Assembly: GCA_031414955.1 (NCBI GenBank)
Contig: JANOQV010000273.1
Span: 1-18,763, forward strand
Reading direction: 5' to 3'
Length of the DNA: 18,763 nt
DNA from: Pedosphaera sp.
GTDB taxonomy: Bacteria > Verrucomicrobiota > Verrucomicrobiia > Limisphaerales > SIBH01
In this document: one piece after another, positions 5,831 through 13,531 of the stretch
Layout of the letters: each line of letters starts with the position of its first letter
Numbering within the stretch: the first letter of the stretch is position 1
Notes under the pieces: generated by a model
Told to the model about the DNA's origin: nothing
Databases searched by the model: none
Seen by the model: only the letters and a program-made list of their open reading frames with translations
Made by a program: the position numbers and the translations under genes

Positions 5831-6134
5831 AGCCCGCGCCGAGCGGGCGGTTCGACAGCACGGGGATCAAAGTCGCGCCCACCATCCTCCGCGCCGTTCT
5901 GCGCGGCGCGACGGCTCGCTGCGCGAGCAGTTCGCATCGAGTTCCAGCAGCGCTTGGAACAGCGGCGCGGGGAAGGCGACCCGGCGGAATCCTGGGCCGT
6001 GTTCCGGCGCGACTGGCGGCGGGGGGGCGGAGGACTTCGCGCAATGCCTGGCCGAACGACCGGACGCGGCCTCCACTGGACGTAGGAAGCGAGGTTGAGT
6101 TGGCGGCGCACGACCATCGCTCGCGCCAGCAGCC

Positions 6135-6162
6135 TTGAACTTTCCGCCCGCCCCGCCACCCT
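6135..6162 (+). promoter_or_regulatory. Possible sigma70-type promoter for a leaderless transcript of the methyltransferase/R-M block
   Basis: TTGAAC (6135-6140), 16 nt, CACCCT (6157-6162), then ATG at 6170 with no Shine-Dalgarno. Weak -10. Confidence 0.3.
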
Positions 6163-6229
6163 GCCGCGCATGGCACGCAAGCAGGCCGGCGACGCACCGG
6201 CGAAAACTCCGGCTCCCGCCGCCGACTCT

Positions 6230-6272
6230 CCCTCTCCGCCTCGAACGGGGAGAGGGACCAAGGGTGAGGTGT
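6230..6272. repeat. CCCTCTCC..GGGGAGAGGG..GGGTGAGG-type palindromic repeat inside the methyltransferase 5' region
   Basis: CCCTCTCCGCCTCGAACGGGGAGAGGGACCAAGGGTGAGGTG hairpin, resembling a widespread REP family. Confidence 0.6.
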
Positions 6273-6297
6273 CGAAAACAAATTCGAGCACGCCGAC

Positions 6298-6369
6298 GGA
6301 GCGCGGCGTTCACGCCGCTTCCACGTCCGCCGACCAGAGCAGCGTGAAGCGGGCTGAAGCCCGCGCTCC
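6298..6369. repeat. GGAG-family REP doublet (REPIN), in-frame in the methyltransferase remnant
   Basis: GGAGCGCGGCGTTCACGCCGCTTC (6298-6321) and inverted GAAGCGGGCTGAAGCCCGCGCTCC (6346-6369). Each has its own hairpin, with compensatory stem changes between copies. Confidence 0.8.
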
Positions 6370-6738
6370 TCGCACCTCTGCCCTGCTCGACACCCGCGTC
6401 GTTTACTGCGGCGACAATCTGGAACAGCTCCGCAAGCTCCCGCCGCAGTGCGTGGATTTGATTTACATCGCCCCGCCCTTCAACTCGAACCGCAACTACG
6501 AAGTGTTCTGGGGCGAGACCAAGGAGATGCGCGCCTTCGACGACCGCCACGAAAACACTCAGGCTTACATCGACTTCATGCGCCCGCGCTGCATGGAACT
6601 GGCCCGCGTGCTCAAGAAGACCGGCAGCTTCTACTACCACTGCGACTGGCACGCCGCCCATTACGTCAAGGTGATGCTCGACCAGATTTTCGGGGAGAAT
6701 AATTTCCAACGCTCAAGTTTTTCTGCATCATCTAGAAA

Positions 6739-7956
6739 ATGTTGAAAGTTTTGGACACATTCGCGGGAGCCGGAGGGTTTAGTCTCGGATTTGAACTGGC
6801 TGGGTGCGCGGTTGTGGGCGGGATTGAGATGGATTCCTGGGCCAGTGAAACCTTTGCCCACAATCACCCAAATGCACTGGTCATTACGCGGGATATTCAA
6901 CTCGTCAGCGACGACGAACTGCGTGACGCCTTCGCGGATCGACGTCCCGACATTCTACTTGGTGGCCCGCCTTGCCAGGGTTTCTCACTGTGCCGGAAAA
7001 ACGCCGGCGATCCAATGGACCCAAAGAATTCTTTGTTTGTCGAATTCCTGCGCATCGCCAGAGCCTTGGAGCCGGATTACGTGATCATGGAGAATGTTCC
7101 AAACATTGAAAACGCGCGCACCCACGGTGGTCAAACTGTGATCGAAATCATCAAGCGGGAGTTGAATGCCTTGGACTACCACGTTTCTCACACTGTTCTT
7201 GAAGCCACGGACTTCGGCATCCCACAAATTCGGAAACGCCTCTTCGTTGTAGCCTCCGCGCCAAATCTTGAAACACCCTTTCCAATTCCGACGCATTGCA
7301 TCCGAAGAGGTGTGGACGATTTATTCGCCGGTTCGCTGGAACCCTGTCCAACGCTATGGGACGCGATTTCTGACTTGCCCGCTTTGAAGGCGGGTGAAGG
7401 GAGCGAGTTGCAAGATTACACAAACGATCCAGAGAACGAATATCAGCGCCGACTTCGGGCCGACAGTGAATCGCTTTGGAACCATAAAGCCATGTGCCAC
7501 TCGAAACGGGTAATTGAGCGATTTGCTTCCATGACCTGTGGCCAGTCGGTTTCCGACGTTCCGAAGCATCTGCGCCCGCTCCAACGGAATGGCAATGGCA
7601 AGATTTCGGGAAAGGTCTATGACCAGAACAATCGCCGGCTTCACCCTAACCGGCCGTGCCACACCATCCCCGCATCATTTTACGCCAATTTTGTTCACCC
7701 ACATCAACACCGAAACTTTACTCCTCGCGAGGGAGCAAGATTGCAATCATTCCCGGACCGGTTTGTGTTCAAGGGCAAACCAACGGTCGTCAGCCACAAA
7801 TTGTTGGCTCGTGAAGGCCGCACCGATGAAAAGCATCTGTGCCAGTACAATCAGATTGGTAATGCAGTGCCGCCGCTGCTGGCAAAGGCCATAGCCGAGA
7901 ATCTGCTGACTCAGACGCGATACGAACCGACAACCCGATATGCATGTTCACGGTGA
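6739..7956 (+). CDS. DNA (cytosine-5)-methyltransferase of a Type II R-M system, M.DdeI/Bpu10I-like
   Basis: C5-MTase motifs in order: I DTFAGAGG, IV GGPPCQGFS, VI ENV, VIII PQIRKR, IX REGARLQSFPD, X QIGNAVPP. Variable region (NHKAMCH..ISGKVYDQNN..ASFYANFVHP) recalls the CTNAG-core M.DdeI clade. Confidence 0.95.
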   Translation: MLKVLDTFAGAGGFSLGFELAGCAVVGGIEMDSWASETFAHNHPNALVITRDIQLVSDDELRDAFADRRPDILLGGPPCQGFSLCRKNAGDPMDPKNSLFVEFLRIARALEPDYVIMENVPNIENARTHGGQTVIEIIKRELNALDYHVSHTVLEATDFGIPQIRKRLFVVASAPNLETPFPIPTHCIRRGVDDLFAGSLEPCPTLWDAISDLPALKAGEGSELQDYTNDPENEYQRRLRADSESLWNHKAMCHSKRVIERFASMTCGQSVSDVPKHLRPLQRNGNGKISGKVYDQNNRRLHPNRPCHTIPASFYANFVHPHQHRNFTPREGARLQSFPDRFVFKGKPTVVSHKLLAREGRTDEKHLCQYNQIGNAVPPLLAKAIAENLLTQTRYEPTTRYACSR

Positions 7957-8809
7957 CAATCTTCAACAGAAAGAAACTGCCGAAGCAAAATATGCCGATG
8001 CGGAGTCTCGGCGATTTTTGCGAGAAATTCGCAAACAATACGAAGTGTGGCGAAATGCGAATCAGGAACTGAAAGGGCCGGGCAAGATAGCGACTGCTCA
8101 TGACAGCGAAATTCTCGGCAAGCGGGTGGTTTTGTTCACGACTTACAAGGATTTCATCGACCAACAAAAATACGCGGAGAAGTTTGACTCGCGCTCGAAT
8201 CTTCACTCGTCCGTTTTGGAAGAATTCATCTACTACCTGTTCCGCGACCTCGTGAGTGAATTCACTGAGCGAGCGCTCATCGGGAAAGCGCACACTTTCA
8301 AAGACATTTTCTTCATGCCGCCAAACTATACGGCGATGCTCGACGCTCCCCACGCGCGAATCGAAAGAAAAGATCATGACTTTGCCATTGGGGTCAGCGT
8401 GAGTGCCTGCCTGAATTGTGCCGGCCAGGAAAAAGGCGAGGTGCATCACTTTCAAATCCCAGCCGTGGCCATCGAGTGCAAAACGTATTTGGACAAAACC
8501 ATGTTGGAAGGTTCTTCAACCGCTGCCGAGCAGTTGAAGTTTCGGAATCCCAACGCGCTTTACCTCGTGGTTTCCGAATGGCTCAAGCTAACGGGCAATG
8601 TGAACCTCCGAAAATTCAAGGTGGATCAGATTTACGTGCTGCGGAAACAGAAGAACACGGATCGCGAATTTCGTTTTCTGCCGGACTACGAAAAGAACCC
8701 GGTCTACCTCGATGTTGTCGAACATCTCTTCAAGACTGTTTGCGCCCATCTCACATCGAATTGGGAAGGCGGTGTTTCTTATGGATTGCAGAAGGGCTAT
8801 CTCCTCTGA
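7940..8809 (+). CDS. Bpu10I-family Type II restriction endonuclease
   Basis: 289 aa, overlapping the MTase 3' end by 17 nt. Motifs HGDNL..K, FDSRSNLHSSVLEEF, KDHDFAIG, AIECKTYLDKTML (PD-(D/E)xK) and IYVLRKQK. Confidence 0.9.
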   Translation: MHVHGDNLQQKETAEAKYADAESRRFLREIRKQYEVWRNANQELKGPGKIATAHDSEILGKRVVLFTTYKDFIDQQKYAEKFDSRSNLHSSVLEEFIYYLFRDLVSEFTERALIGKAHTFKDIFFMPPNYTAMLDAPHARIERKDHDFAIGVSVSACLNCAGQEKGEVHHFQIPAVAIECKTYLDKTMLEGSSTAAEQLKFRNPNALYLVVSEWLKLTGNVNLRKFKVDQIYVLRKQKNTDREFRFLPDYEKNPVYLDVVEHLFKTVCAHLTSNWEGGVSYGLQKGYLL

Positions 8810-8855
8810 AGAAAAGCTGCGCGCCATCCCGCCGTTCGAGTTCGAGAACTGGGCC
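8808..8855 (+). pseudogene. Remnant (EEKLRAIPPFEFENWA) resembling the start of the C-terminal Mrr-like domain of MTase-endonuclease fusion proteins
   Basis: High-GC3 codons resume immediately at the REase stop for 16 codons. The LR.IPPFEFENWA motif is recalled from the same family as the 6170 remnant (recall, not a search). Confidence 0.6.
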
Positions 8856-8998
8856 GAAAAGAGGTCGATTCCTAGTTTCTGCAAGTCGATTTTCCTCAGG
8901 CGCAACCCGGCGGATTCCACTCATGAAGCGCATCAACCCAGAAAGCTCGCGTTTCGAGCACCCACCAGCCTGAAATCATATAAAGGGCTGTTTGTCTG

Positions 8999-9442
8999 AT
9001 GGTTAGCTATCCATTGGCATGTCACTTCTGGCGGAAACGATGTTGTTTTTCGCAAAAACAACACTGCTTGGGGCGTAAACAGTACTGCGCGGCCCGTGGC
9101 CCATACTGCGCGGCTGGCCAGCAGTATGGCCCCGCCTCGACCGTATGGAGCGGGAGCCGCGCGCAGTGTGGTCCGGCCTCGGGCGTATGGAGCGGGCGCA
9201 GTTCGCAGTGTGGTCCCGGCTCGACGGTATGGAGCTGGGAACGTGCGCAGTGTGGTCGGGTGGCGCCGGTATGGAGCGGAGCGCGGGAGCAGTGTCGCGG
9301 GAGGCCGGGAGTATGGAGCGCGGGTCGTCGGCAGTACTGCCCGCGGCGGTCGGAGTGTCGCGCCAGCGGTGGTTCGGGTCTCGCCCGAGGCCGGGAGTAC
9401 GGTTCACCTCGCGCGCCGGGTCAGGTTCGCGGTCGGGAGTAG
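8999..9442 (+). CDS. Possible 147-aa heptad-repeat Cys/Trp-rich ORF spanning the array (may be non-coding)
   Basis: ATG 8999 to TAG 9442 is in phase with the 21-bp units, giving (QCGxxxx-VWSxxxx)n. No clear RBS, and several other frames are also open. Confidence 0.3.
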   Translation: MVSYPLACHFWRKRCCFSQKQHCLGRKQYCAARGPYCAAGQQYGPASTVWSGSRAQCGPASGVWSGRSSQCGPGSTVWSWERAQCGRVAPVWSGAREQCRGRPGVWSAGRRQYCPRRSECRASGGSGLARGREYGSPRAPGQVRGRE

Positions 9443-9445
9443 AGT
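9038..9445. repeat. 21-bp-period array of alternating conserved 9-mers and 12-nt variable segments (42-bp higher-order unit)
   Basis: GTATGGAGC at 9143, 9185, 9227, 9269 and 9311. CAGT(G/A)TGG(T/C)-like motifs at 9122, 9164, 9206 and 9248, with variants at 9080, 9290, 9332, 9353, 9395 and 9437. About 19-20 units, all in 21-nt phase. Confidence 0.92.
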
Positions 9446-9536
9446 GGGCGTGGGGCGCCGATAGATTTTAATGGTGCTTGCTGCGCTCGGGCGAAAGTTC
9501 AGTGTCGGCCCGTCCACCGCCATGCCGAACACTATT

Positions 9537-9634
9537 GGTTTTCAACCCGCAGCACGCCGCTGCCGCCGAGGATCGAAATAGTTCCTGTGACTTCCGCCCC
9601 AGCAACCTGCTGCGGGTTGAAAACCCGCGCTCCG
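9537..9634. repeat. GGAG-family REP doublet (left copy truncated)
   Basis: 18-bp perfect IR GGTTTTCAACCCGCAGCA (9537-9554) / TGCTGCGGGTTGAAAACC (9608-9625), followed by CGCGCTCCG, matching the ends of the 3562-3588 and 6346-6369 copies. Confidence 0.8.
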
Positions 9635-9741
9635 GCCCAGCTTCGCTGGCGGCCTCCCGGTGCGACTTCGGAGTTCAGGTCAAGTCCGGCCCATCATCAC
9701 GCCATGCGCCACGCACCGTGCAACCACCCACCAGGAGCGGA

Positions 9742-9852: not shown

Positions 9853-11358
9853 TCAGGTGCCGCAGAAGGTTCGGCAGATCGGAGTGCCGGGGGGCGGCGG
9901 ATTCAGCAGGGCGGCGGGTTGGCCAGCTTCGTCGTAGGGGTTGGCCAACGCGGCGAGGAGGCGTTCCAACGGGGCGAGATCGTTGCCGTTGGCGGCGGCG
10001 AGGGCGGCTTCCACTTCGTGGTTCCGGGGAATCACCGCCGGGTTGTGGGCGTGCATGAGCCGCAGTGTTTCTGTCCAAGGCTGGGTTTGCCGCGCGAGGC
10101 GGTCGGTCCAGCGTCGGTGCCAGGTGATGAATGTCCCTTCGGCCGGAGGAGTTGTTTGCGGCGGGGCTTGGGGTCGCAGGTTCCGGAAGGTGTGGGTGTA
10201 GTCGGCCCGAGCTTGGTGCATCCAGCGGAGCAACTCGTCGCCGAGGGAAGTGTCTTCCGGTTCAGCGGTGAACAGGCCGAGCTTGGCGCGCAGGGCCGCA
10301 AGCCAGTGTTGCTGAAAGCGCGTGGAGAAAGTTTCGATCACCTGCTGGGCGCGGGCCAGGGCGGTCTCTGGTTCCGGGTGCAGGAGGGGCAGCAGGGTCT
10401 CGGCGAGGCGGGCCAGGTTCCAGGCCGCAATCTGGGGTTGCTGTCCAAAGGCGTAGCGGCCGTGACGGTCGATGGAACTGAACACAGCCGCCGGATCGTA
10501 GGCATCCAGGAAGGCGCAGGGACCGTAGTCGATGGTTTCGCCGGAGAGCGCCATGTTGTCGGTGTTCATGACGCCATGCACGAAGCCGACCCGCATCCAG
10601 TGGGCGAGGAGCGAACCCTGTCTTTCCATCACTGCTTCCAAAAGTCCGAGCGCTGGAGGCCCGGACTCGACCCGGTTCGGAAAGTGGCGGCGAAGCGTGT
10701 AGTCGGCCAGGACGCGCAGAGCCTCGGTGTCGCCGAGCGCGGCGAAGTATTCGAAGGTGCCGACGCGGATGTGGCTGGCGGCGACGCGGGTGAGCACCGC
10801 ACCGAGAAGCGGTTGTTCGCGGAAGACCGGTTCGCCGGTGCTGGCTACGGCGAGGCTGCGCGTGGTCGGGATGCCGAGGGCGTGCATGGCTTCGCTGATC
10901 AGATACTCGCGCAGCATGGGGCCGAGGGCGGCCCGGCCGTCGCCGCGGCGCGAGTAGGGAGTCGGCCCGGCGCCTTTCAACTGGATGTCGAACCGCTCGC
11001 CCGAGGGTGTGCGGTGTTCACCGAGCAGGATGGCGCGCCCGTCGCCGAGCCGGACAAAATTTCCGTACTGATGTCCGGCATAGGCCTGGGCGATAGGCTC
11101 GGCCCCGGGAAGGATTTTGTTGCCGGTGAAGAAGGCAGCCGCACCCGCGCCGGTGCAGGCGGCGGGGTCGAGTCCGAGGGCTCGGGCCAGCGGATGGTTG
11201 AAGAGAACGAGGCGCGGTTGGGTGACCGGGGTGGGATTGACCTGGGCGTGGAACACTTCCGGCAGGCGGGCGTAAGTGTTGTCGAACTGCCAGCCGGCGG
11301 GACGCGGGGCAGCTTCGGAGGTCTGGCGAACCGGCTGGCCCGTCTCATCGTTCATCAT
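9853..11358 (-). CDS. selO: Protein adenylyltransferase SelO (YdiU family)
   Basis: Motifs AQAYAGHQYG..LGDGRA, QLKGAGPTPYSRRGDGRA, REYLISEAMHALGIPTTRSL, GFVHGVMNTDNM, IDYGP, NPAVIPRNH and C-terminal TFCGT. Start at MMNDE (11358). Confidence 0.96.
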   Translation of the reverse strand: MMNDETGQPVRQTSEAAPRPAGWQFDNTYARLPEVFHAQVNPTPVTQPRLVLFNHPLARALGLDPAACTGAGAAAFFTGNKILPGAEPIAQAYAGHQYGNFVRLGDGRAILLGEHRTPSGERFDIQLKGAGPTPYSRRGDGRAALGPMLREYLISEAMHALGIPTTRSLAVASTGEPVFREQPLLGAVLTRVAASHIRVGTFEYFAALGDTEALRVLADYTLRRHFPNRVESGPPALGLLEAVMERQGSLLAHWMRVGFVHGVMNTDNMALSGETIDYGPCAFLDAYDPAAVFSSIDRHGRYAFGQQPQIAAWNLARLAETLLPLLHPEPETALARAQQVIETFSTRFQQHWLAALRAKLGLFTAEPEDTSLGDELLRWMHQARADYTHTFRNLRPQAPPQTTPPAEGTFITWHRRWTDRLARQTQPWTETLRLMHAHNPAVIPRNHEVEAALAAANGNDLAPLERLLAALANPYDEAGQPAALLNPPPPGTPICRTFCGT

Positions 11359-11461
11359 TCTGGTTTCAGCATGGCGTGGCGGCTGAAAAATGGGAGGCAG
11401 AAGGTTGGAGGCTCCGCATCCTCGGGGCTGGTGCGCTTGCGCTCTGCACGCGCATGGCCGC

Positions 11462-13531
11462 TCAAGGGACGCGGCGTAACTGGTAGAAGTGGTGCGAATT
11501 CGTCGTCGGCACGGTGACGATCTTGCGCCGACTGTTCGTGGATACCGTGCCACCCGGCGGCAGCCATTGGGGTGAGGGAAGGTTCGGCGCGGCCACCAGT
11601 TCGTAATCCGGGAAGGAAGTTGGCCAGGTGATCACGGCGTTGGTCTGGGCGCGCGCAATGGTCATCGTGGGCTGCGGTGTGCCGGGGTAGTCGCCTTTGA
11701 AGATCGTGAAGGAGTCGTCCACCGTTCCGCCGGCCGTGACGAAGCTCGCGTCCAGCTTCAATCCATCCACATCAATGACCAGCGCCCCGGCCGTGAGCAC
11801 CGAGTAGGCCATGGCCGGATGATCAAGCGACCCGCCGCCATATTGCCCGCCGGAACTTCCATCCACGACATAGACCGTGCCGCGCCGGGCCCCGAGTCCG
11901 CCGGCAGGCTTCAAGTAAGCGCCCTGCCCGTTGGTTTGACCGTTGCCACCGTTGAGGTAATTGGTCGCACTGACTTCCGAGGAATATCCATAGAAGCCAT
12001 CGATCAGGTAAGAGCGTTCATAGGAGTGACTGTGGCCGAACAGGACCAAATCCACCCCGGCCGCTTCCAGAATGGGCAGCACGTTCCGCCGCATCTGGAT
12101 CAGTTCAGGCTCAGCATCCGAGTCGTGCGAGCCTTTGGTGTAAGCGGGATGATGCCAGTAGGCGATGACCCAATCGCGCGTGTTGTCGGCGAGGTCGGCC
12201 TGAAGCCATTGCAGCATGGCGCTGCCGGGCTGGCGAAAAACGGCGGTCATCGAGTCGAGGCAGACGAAGTGGATGTTCGCGTAGTCGTAGGAATAGTAGT
12301 GCTCGGTGCCCGAGGCCAGCCCGCCGGCCTGGCCGTTCGTCGGCATGGTGAAGATGCGGTAGTAATCGTAATCATCCGTCAGCACCTGGCTGCCGGTGCC
12401 GGTTTCATGATTGCCGATGGTGGGCCAGACCACGGTCTGGCGGAGCAACGACGGGTAGATGTTGAACACGTACGATTGATACTGGCTGTCGTAGCCCTGG
12501 CCATAGGCGTTGTCGCCCAACATCAGCCACACGTCGGTGTTCCGGTTGCTGGTGAAATTGTAGTAAGCATCGCGCACTTGATACTGCGGGCCGTAGCCAG
12601 TGCCGAAATCGCCGATGGCCCAGATGCGCGTGGGCTTGGCCGGGCCGGGCCGGGGAGAAGTGTGAAAGAAGTAGCTGGCATCGCCGGCCAGGGACTGCGT
12701 GAGAATGCCGATGGCGTAGAAGTATTTCGTGTCGGGCACCAGGCCGGTCAGCGTGATTTCGTGGTCGGTGACGAAGGTCGCATTGCTTACGCCCAGGTTC
12801 AGATTGGCGAGATTGGTTCCATACAGCACGCGCGTGGTGCTCGGCCCGCCGGTCCTCCAGCGCACCACCAAGTTGCTGGAAGTGCCCACTTGGAGGTACG
12901 GCCCGCGCGTCACCGTGGGCGTGACACCCCCGCCGGGATTGGCCAGCAATTCCAAGTCGAAGCTCAGGTCCGGGCTGGCTGGCTCGTACTGATGCACCTC
13001 CACCGCAATCAAGTTGTAACCGGAGACGAAGAGCGAAGGGCTTAACGTGGTGCTGCTGAGGTCGGCCTCATCGGGGTAACTGAGCCGGCTGGCCGCGTAG
13101 GTTTCACAGTCGATGATGCCGCCAGGCATGTTGTTGCGAAAAACCTCCTGGCCGTTCACATACACCACCGCGCCGTCATCGCTCAACAGGTTCACCACCA
13201 ACGAGGCATACTCGCCCGGGTCGGCGATGAGCACGTAACCTCGGAAATAGGTGGTCACGTACTTGTCCTCGTCATCCGGGCCGTAGCTGATCGACGTCTC
13301 CTCATCGCCGTCGCCATAGCCGAATTGCGCAAAGCCGAAGCTCCAGCCGTAATCACCCTCGTCGTAACCCAGTTCAGACCAGTTCGAGCCGGGCGCGTAG
13401 CCCTGATCAAAAAAGTACCAGCCGGAGTAAAACGGAAGCAGGGTGGTCGCCCCGTGCAGCCGGTGGGACGCCAGGACGAACCCGGCCAGCGCGAGCGCGA
13501 GACAAAGCCAGTTACTGAGATGCCGTTTCAT
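11462..13531 (-). CDS. Secreted purple acid phosphatase-family metallophosphoesterase with an N-terminal beta-sandwich, an FN3-like domain and a C-terminal tail domain
   Basis: Signal peptide MKRHLSNWLCLALALAGFVLA. Metal motifs GDFG, LGDNAY, GNHE, HHP and GHSHSYER. RGPYLQ..VRWRT PAP N-domain; SDDGAVVYVNG..N.IAVEVHQ N-terminal domain. Confidence 0.93.
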   Translation of the reverse strand: MKRHLSNWLCLALALAGFVLASHRLHGATTLLPFYSGWYFFDQGYAPGSNWSELGYDEGDYGWSFGFAQFGYGDGDEETSISYGPDDEDKYVTTYFRGYVLIADPGEYASLVVNLLSDDGAVVYVNGQEVFRNNMPGGIIDCETYAASRLSYPDEADLSSTTLSPSLFVSGYNLIAVEVHQYEPASPDLSFDLELLANPGGGVTPTVTRGPYLQVGTSSNLVVRWRTGGPSTTRVLYGTNLANLNLGVSNATFVTDHEITLTGLVPDTKYFYAIGILTQSLAGDASYFFHTSPRPGPAKPTRIWAIGDFGTGYGPQYQVRDAYYNFTSNRNTDVWLMLGDNAYGQGYDSQYQSYVFNIYPSLLRQTVVWPTIGNHETGTGSQVLTDDYDYYRIFTMPTNGQAGGLASGTEHYYSYDYANIHFVCLDSMTAVFRQPGSAMLQWLQADLADNTRDWVIAYWHHPAYTKGSHDSDAEPELIQMRRNVLPILEAAGVDLVLFGHSHSYERSYLIDGFYGYSSEVSATNYLNGGNGQTNGQGAYLKPAGGLGARRGTVYVVDGSSGGQYGGGSLDHPAMAYSVLTAGALVIDVDGLKLDASFVTAGGTVDDSFTIFKGDYPGTPQPTMTIARAQTNAVITWPTSFPDYELVAAPNLPSPQWLPPGGTVSTNSRRKIVTVPTTNSHHFYQLRRVP

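Follow-up and report, generated by a model that had tools for sequence, protein, structure and literature searches.

Organization of the repeat array

The window analysed here, i.e. the whole stretch of 18,763 bp, is the complete contig JANOQV010000273.1 (C273) of a metagenome-assembled genome (MAG) of Pedosphaera sp. It carries, between a restriction-modification cassette and the 3' end of selO, an array of approximately 18 short units in which two different 9-nt motifs, designated A and B, recur at exact 21- and 42-nt distances. The array is interpreted below, tentatively, as a set of putative protein-binding sites; the alternatives considered were a non-coding RNA array, a functionless minisatellite and a repeat protein.

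On the + strand a single 21-nt register, laid out as 21-nt rows anchored at the first GTATGGAGC (position 9143), extends from ~9038 to ~9457 without net insertion or deletion. The preliminary description of this DNA, made from the sequence alone, had placed an indel-free array at 9038-9445 and these limits and the phasing were reproduced. The strict alternation of motifs A and B that it had also described for the core holds (9122-9331), and the array overall consists of three parts: a 5' part with a period of 21, the core with a period of 42 and a decayed 3' part with a period of 42.

The core comprises five 42-nt units, each built of motif A (9 nt), a 12-nt segment, motif B (9 nt) and a second 12-nt segment. 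Motif B, GTATGGAGC, occurs at 9143-9151 and again at 9185, 9227, 9269 and 9311 and is identical in all five copies, as reported earlier; the ten 12-mers also read as previously listed. Motif A, CAGTGTGGT, is exact in three of the five units (9164-9172, 9206 and 9248) and is replaced by the variants CAGTATGGC at 9122 and CAGTGTCGC at 9290. A G residue directly precedes motif A in all core units. The core GTRTGG is common to the two motifs, and its position in A differs by 2 bp from that in B.

The 5' part (9013-9121, + strand), delimited by lag-21 identity and the unit table, has unit starts at 9038, 9059, 9080 and 9101 and contains CAACACTGC, CAGTACTGC and CCATACTGC. The decayed 3' part (9332-9457, + strand), delimited by lag-42 identity and the unit table, opens with CAGTACTGC at 9332 and goes on with GAGTGTCGC, GAGTACGGT and GAGTAGAGT at 9353, 9395 and 9437, alternating with TCGGGTCTC and CCGGGTCAG at 9374 and 9416. 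Tandem Repeats Finder reported a period of 42 at 9121-9295, with 4.2 copies and 75-79% matches. Self-similarity at lag 21 was 0.48-0.67 across 9013-9097, and at lag 42 it was 0.57-0.81 across 9097-9300 and 0.48-0.60 across 9349-9411; it reached background by ~9450, and lags 20, 22, 41 and 43 stayed at background throughout. The lower lag identities in the flanks bear out the decay towards both ends seen before. So does the base composition for the AT-richer lead-in: the G+C content is 0.52-0.54 in 8800-9099 and 0.72 in the array.

Several minor features lie at the array borders. The first array unit holds an AT-rich perfect palindrome of 9+9 bp, GTTGTTTTT-CGC-AAAAACAAC (9042-9062), which occurs once in the genome; its RNA fold has an energy of -7.8 kcal/mol (z -1.75) and it could form a weak hairpin or serve as a dimer-binding site. 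The step AAA|C recurs in 21-bp phase at the unit borders 9035-9038, 9056-9059 and 9077-9080 and might bend the DNA. A second perfect palindrome, CAGTACTG, is found in edge units, at 9080 and 9332. At the 3' end of the array a weak terminator-like hairpin of five pairs is followed by GATAGATTTT (9447-9469, + strand), but it is not significant.

The own genome (G000) amounts to 6.55 Mb in 313 contigs with 62% G+C, is 95.9% complete with 5.8% contamination, and was assembled from, or is at least present in, freshwater-sediment metagenomes. Independent Logan contigs from two runs, both of which may be source samples of the MAG, span the array with 0 differences. The array is no assembly artefact of the MAG. 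Three DNA runs from one freshwater-sediment study contain the locus or pieces of it, and no RNA run is given in the run listing as containing it. In run X3 the locus is represented by a variant contig of 72 letters.

Conservation of the motifs and of the unit length

The units are 57-79% identical to each other, and the identity is very unevenly distributed. When the core units were compared pairwise, 166 of 180 motif positions were identical in comparison to 117 of 240 filler positions, with a motif/filler partition that was chosen post hoc, after inspection of the data. The contrast was significant in 8 of the 10 unit pairs (Fisher p<0.005), and in units 2 and 4 it amounted to 18/18 motif matches against 9/24 filler matches (p=1.3e-5). 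Statistics independent of the partition gave the same picture: the longest stretch of invariant columns spanned 9 of 42 (p=0.006 by column permutation), and column identity was autocorrelated at lag 1 (p=0.001). The Fisher, permutation and autocorrelation tests thus agree with the preliminary view that uniform drift of a tandem repeat is insufficient to explain the pattern. Mean column identity was 0.84 in motif A, 1.00 in motif B (45/45 positions invariant) and 0.48 and 0.50 in the two fillers.

The fillers contain 80-87% G+C, compared with 62% in the genome. Their pairwise identity (0.47-0.50) is near the 0.38-0.40 expected of random sequences of the same composition, and the copies are therefore old. 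Only fillers A1-A3 (58-83%), whose likeness had been noted earlier, and B1-B2 (67%) look related, the distant ones being at the random level. The similarity gradient of A1-A3 fits growth by tandem duplication and not spacer acquisition, and tandem duplication as the origin of the array follows also from the closer likeness of neighbouring units than of distant ones. Since two blocks per unit have been kept and none of the approximately 18 units has been altered in length, the data argue for constraint on the motifs and on the spacing, at least formerly.

This conservation is at the nucleotide level and not at the amino-acid level. Of the six frames, the three of the + strand and one of the - strand run open through the array, as often happens at 72% G+C. 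Codon log-odds were trained on 1,161 long open reading frames (ORFs) of the own genome; per codon they were negative in six of six frames (best -0.057), in comparison to +0.26 and +0.48 for the neighbouring genes selO and psd, respectively. When the columns were grouped by codon position, their mean identity was flat in each frame (0.65-0.70); the synonymous bias that the preliminary description had named as the sign of a repeat protein did not appear. In motif B the degenerate third positions are invariant in each frame, through unpreferred codons (GTA, GGA, NGT), and in the frame with the best G+C content at third codon positions (GC3) it is the first codon position that varies (CGT/GGT/AGT) and the third that is constant. 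A search limited to proteins of near length gave no homologue of ORFs 8999-9442 and 9145-9471, and ORF 9096-9464 gave 0 matches among 1.84 billion representatives. Pfam and NCBIfam contained no family for any array ORF on either strand, the minus-strand ORF 9003-9407 having been checked against these two only. The protein-coding reading is disfavoured by the test, and the heptad-repeat protein suggested in the preliminary description is contradicted by the flat codon-position identity, the negative log-odds and the lack of homologues in these searches.

Genomic surroundings of the array

To the left of the array a native N6/N4 DNA methylase gene has been interrupted. Its 5' third (6095-6745, + strand), which matches only positions 1-74 of the 221-position profile PF01555, is cut at ~6711. 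The corresponding protein of the same-genus genome G003 has ~557 amino acids, and the window segment 6371-6711 shows 88% nt identity to G003:C36. In place of ~720 nt of the native gene there is a low-G+C cassette of 2.1 kb (6739-8809, + strand, ~50% G+C) encoding a C5 cytosine methylase (6739-7956) and a Bpu10I-family endonuclease (7940-8809), which agrees with the earlier placement of restriction-modification genes directly upstream of the array. Bpu10I-type enzymes consist of two subunits. A single endonuclease ORF was seen, and the restriction system may be incomplete. Endonuclease homologues were present in 3 of 401 genomes of the phylum, with 33-36% identity.

A 52-nt remnant of the native methylase gene (8805-8856, + strand), corresponding to amino acids 410-439 of the relative's protein, follows the cassette (90% nt identity to G003:C36; tblastn E 2.5e-6). 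Similarity to the relatives ends at 8856, where the native gene stops definitively; G003, G015 and G011 contain nothing that corresponds to the next 220 bp, which are AT-richer, or to the array. Further to the left, the synteny of psd, a major facilitator superfamily (MFS) gene and an ORF is kept in four same-genus genomes; the DNA upstream of psd is different in each.

To the right of the array lies a dispersed element of ~145 bp (9537-9680) resembling miniature inverted-repeat transposable elements (MITE) or repetitive extragenic palindromes (REP), with terminal inverted repeats of 18-27 bp (GGTTTTCAACCCGCAGCA). The 18-mer of this element occurs 27 times in the genome, BLAST matches of 60-150 nt with 75-90% identity were found on more than 25 contigs, and the Logan contigs show depth spikes. 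Because these repeats are spread genome-wide, they tie contig C273 to its own genome. A second short repeat, 9511-9538 (region 9509-9549), is situated left of the MITE-like element and matches sequences near several contig ends; it probably breaks the assembly.

The next gene is selO (9853-11553, - strand; PF02696, E 2.4e-107), coding for a protein adenylyltransferase and having its 3' end towards the array. It was found in 4 of the 15 related genomes searched. The best orthologue (76% amino acid and 78% nt identity) is that of G018, from another family of the order, where an unrelated gene and no repeats are present downstream of selO. The patchiness of selO and the family in which its best match lies suggest acquisition or reshuffling also for the DNA on the right side of the array. 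Converging gene ends flank the array on both sides; the junction that it occupies has been rearranged repeatedly, and the array has no obvious target gene to regulate.

Search for related arrays

The exact pattern GTATGGAGC-N12-CAGTGTGG was searched for in 185,579 species genomes, the JGI metagenome collection and IMG/VR. It was found at 33 loci in genomes, 2 in viruses and 46 in metagenome contigs, all of them single matches and none an array; by estimate, a uniform composition would give ~69 chance matches in 596 Gb. When 3 mismatches at most were allowed, the counts in 400 other genomes of the order were like those of the reversed-pattern control, and the own genome had 7 matches forward and 10 reverse, against 3 and 3 for the control. 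G714, a genome as yet unpublished, belongs to this set of 401 and supports no claim made here. BLAST of 9000-9470 against 40 relatives returned only one 45-nt match, in G015 (E 9.9e-4), and the plasmid and phage collections gave no match.

Tandem Repeats Finder applied to the whole genome detected other period-21/42 arrays, none with the motifs of the array; two period-42/21 arrays of unrelated units are located at C292:38691-38866 and C288:61222-61395. Neither the own genome nor the 40 relatives and the 400 genomes of the order thus yielded the similar arrays that the preliminary description had envisaged in the genome and its relatives. With a single copy in its genome and no like array found in any collection searched, the array is an orphan.

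The array as a putative set of protein-binding sites

The array is interpreted, with a confidence that stays below even, as a duplication-derived, non-coding, helically phased array of putative protein-binding sites, possibly a relic. Duplication of a 21-bp unit and then of a 42-bp unit would have given rise to it. The motifs would be the contacts of a single protein, or of two proteins or domains, on double-stranded DNA, a choice that is proposed because A and B have a common core. The sole role of the G+C-rich fillers would be to space the sites by two (21 bp) or four (42 bp) turns on one face of the helix; 21.0 and 42.0 bp correspond to two and four turns of B-DNA. Sites placed on the same face could then allow cooperative binding or DNA wrapping of the kind seen at the centromeres of plasmids and at iteron origins. 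Since there is no partner gene, the junction is rearranged and the ends are eroded, the array may be a relic imported with foreign DNA, the binding protein of which would be encoded elsewhere or lost.

Phased protein-binding sites had already been listed as one of the options in the preliminary description, and they appear to be the best fit to the nucleotide-level conservation of the motifs and the exact 21/42-bp spacing, with no binding protein identified among the genes of the window. Two blocks of 9-11 bp are kept in every 42 bp, the fillers are near random and the unit length is exact. The palindrome CAGTACTG of the edge units fits a dimeric DNA-binding protein.

A number of observations weigh against such a function. 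No gene for a DNA-binding protein and no par or rep gene adjoins the array (34 window ORFs scanned). The motifs are not enriched elsewhere: GTATGGAGC occurs 14 times and CAGTGTGGT 36 times on the two strands of the own genome, of which 5 and 3 copies, respectively, lie in the array, and the 9 and 33 occurrences outside it compare with a composition-based estimate of ~49 each, therefore no regulon is visible. The core-to-core spacing alternates between 19 and 23 bp, a non-ideal phasing for one protein, and 9-11 conserved bp of 21 is less than in classical iterons. The position between converging gene ends is not that of a promoter region. With no homologous array in any search the constraint is unconfirmed by comparison, and a constant unit length would be equally expected of a processed RNA array.

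Two known kinds of repeated binding sites were compared with the array. In iteron origins direct repeats ~21-22 bp apart likewise stand beside an AT-richer stretch. Iterons, however, usually number 4-7, whereas here there are ~18 units with two alternating motif types, only 9-11 of 21 bp are conserved and there is no rep gene. An iteron origin was rejected, as no rep family was found in the window and the lead-in, with its G+C content of 0.52-0.54, is only moderately AT-rich.

Regarding centromeres, helically phased repeats with a motif are present in the form of the exact 21/42-bp period and the conserved 9-mers. The sopC centromere of F is described as a 43-bp direct repeat in 12 copies, in each of which SopB has a 16-bp inverted-repeat site (PMC3177203). 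As far as this outline of sopC goes, the array resembles it in the tandem period of approximately four helical turns, the short contact motif in each unit, the many units and a proposed role as cis-acting DNA. It differs from sopC in having no nearby sopA/sopB or parA/parB, two motifs per unit and diverged fillers, and the core motifs are not inverted repeats, the palindrome CAGTACTG being confined to edge units. A partition centromere was rejected because no parA/parB, sopA/sopB or parM/parR family was detected by Pfam among the 34 window ORFs.

If the motifs are true protein contacts, a lineage that has been little studied would contain a phased array with two motifs and an unusually great length (~18 units), which would offer a handle on a DNA-organising or segregation-type protein hidden from sequence annotation. 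The evidence comes from one locus in one MAG, with no relatives or partner gene found. The probability left over by this and the explanations weighed below is assigned to something not considered here.

Comparison with RNA arrays

It is also possible, although rather doubtful, that the array specifies a non-coding RNA. A + strand transcript would begin in the AT-richer lead-in, end with the weak hairpin and U-run at 9447-9469 and act through its repeated short motifs. It could be cut to 42-nt units with two 12-nt segments each, in the manner of TIGR (tandem interspaced guide RNA) arrays but with an unrecognised effector, or it could be a multi-site decoy for an RNA-binding protein.

Dual-repeat TIGR arrays are outlined as two distinct alternating repeats of 8-12 nt separated by 9-nt spacers (exceptions up to 12 nt), mostly 5-15 units long and ending with a terminator, and they adjoin a tas gene encoding a Nop-domain protein (Faure et al. 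2025, PMC12045711). According to the same source and a later preprint, box D (UG) opens both repeats and box C (CCA or a covarying equivalent) closes them, which gives all spacers the same flanks (PMC12045711; 10.64898/2026.09.09.750476). TIGRFinder uses a spacer range of 8-10 nt (Xu et al. 2026 preprint, 10.64898/2026.09.09.750476).

In its layout the array agrees with the dual-repeat outline of PMC12045711, and better than the preliminary description had assumed. Its 9-nt repeats A and B alternate strictly with variable segments of fixed length over at least five units (five in the core), the boundary units are degenerate and the last unit is followed by a hairpin and a T-run, exactly at the end of the array. 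The common core, GURUGG in RNA, recalls the resemblance between edge and loop repeats that TIGR arrays are described to need. The 12-nt segments correspond to the published extreme for TIGR spacers and are outside the 8-10 nt of TIGRFinder. The neighbouring restriction-modification cassette provides a defence context.

The likeness to the TIGR outline does not extend further. The unit is 42 nt long, in comparison to 36 nt in TIGR arrays, and the variable segments have 80-87% G+C and are partly related by descent. The termini of A and B, CA..GU and GU..GC on the + strand and AC..UG and GC..AC on the - strand, do not have equal box D and box C letters, and when the units are anchored on GURUGG the variable intervals become unequal, 13 and 17 nt. 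The host is a free-living-type bacterium with a 6.5-Mb genome of 62% G+C, as opposed to the phage or parasitic bacterium of the published systems.

As stated in the preliminary description, the window lacks a Nop-domain gene: Pfam and NCBIfam scans of its ORFs detected none, and in the genome, 95.9% complete, the Pfam profile PF01798 gave 0 matches at E<=1 and PF21572 a best E of 0.08; a very divergent Tas may have escaped these profiles. A third profile from the set of the TIGR paper, PF23667, is a CUB domain in the Pfam copy used and was discarded as irrelevant. There is also no unexplained ORF with a coding signal beside the array. The assignment to TIGR arrays was rejected, with no Nop-domain gene found by these profile scans in the window or genome and no common box D/box C termini.

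The folding and signal predictions did not favour an RNA of any kind. Whole-array folds were not better than shuffles (z -1.15 for the + and -1.48 for the - strand). Units 1 and 3 form an identical hairpin (z -1.9 and -2.7) and units 2, 4 and 5 do not (z>0), so no structure is common to all core units (2 of 5 with the same hairpin). Rfam returned microRNA-type noise only, at E>=0.32. A promoter scan gave 0 sites, and a terminator scan gave 1 site against 1.0 +/- 1.2 in shuffles, the fold of the hairpin 9447-9469 being -9.0 kcal/mol (z -0.68).

Two other types of repeated RNA were considered. Motif B holds AUGGA, compatible with the minimal CsrA site, A(N)GGA, and CsrA is encoded in 4 of 11 same-genus genomes, but CsrA (PF02599) was not found in the own genome. 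A CsrB/RsmZ-type sponge for CsrA was rejected: AUGGA is present in all five B motifs but not consistently in loops, the genome has no CsrA by the same profile and Rfam gave no match. For a global regulator, CsrA has a patchy distribution (4/11 same-genus genomes, 16/31 relatives).

The antitoxin arrays of type III toxin-antitoxin systems, of the ToxI type, are similar in their tandem units of ~36-45 nt, the neighbourhood of defence genes and the closing hairpin. ToxI repeats are, however, near-identical and directly upstream of a toxN-type gene, whereas the units here are 57-79% identical and the array is followed by the MITE-like element and the 3' end of selO, with no toxin ORF; this candidate was rejected, no family-matching ORF having been found downstream on either strand.

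A guide-RNA array of a new kind, with 42-nt units carrying two 12-nt guides between handles with GURUGG and a non-Nop effector encoded elsewhere in a large free-living bacterium, is highly improbable. If the array is nevertheless an RNA array, the class of short dual-repeat arrays, opened recently, would no longer be limited to Nop-domain systems. The array is real and its pattern is statistically non-trivial, yet no Nop-domain gene was found with it and it lacks the common termini of the TIGR family that it resembles. Its practical value is that of a worked example that a TIGR-like layout alone is insufficient for calling a TIGR array.

Other explanations

A functionless minisatellite, i.e. 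a tandem duplication at the junction that is decaying, with the contrast between motifs and fillers produced by mutation or conversion bias instead of selection, is distinctly unlikely. It would be in keeping with the occurrence of the array at one locus of one genome and in no relatives, with its location at a spot that tolerates junk, flanked by the 3' ends of genes and close to a MITE-like element and a truncated gene, and with the erosion of both ends and the greater likeness of neighbouring units than of distant ones. It is at odds with the sharp contrast seen between units 2 and 4 and likewise in 8 of 10 pairs, as well as with motif B, which holds its A/T and G/C letters in five of five copies while the fillers are near random. 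The unit length is unchanged despite the divergence, and we know of no bias that spares exactly two 9-mers.

A repeat protein or its remnant with a period of 14 residues, QCG....VWS.... in the ATG frame 8999-9442 or AVWS....MER... in the frame 9145-9471, is very unlikely: the + frames are all open over the array, the unit length is divisible by three, and in the frame from 9124 the core has a GC3 of 0.81, above the G+C content of first (GC1, 0.71) and second (GC2, 0.64) codon positions, with the A/G difference in motif A and the following TCC/TCG difference both synonymous, but the negative log-odds in all six frames, the flat codon-position identity, the degenerate sites of the motifs held invariant with unpreferred codons while first positions vary, and the lack of homologues for the frame-1 and frame-3 ORFs (among near-length proteins) and the frame-2 ORF, and of any Pfam or NCBIfam family, all speak against it. 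Array-like units also reach upstream of the first start codons of frames 2 and 3.

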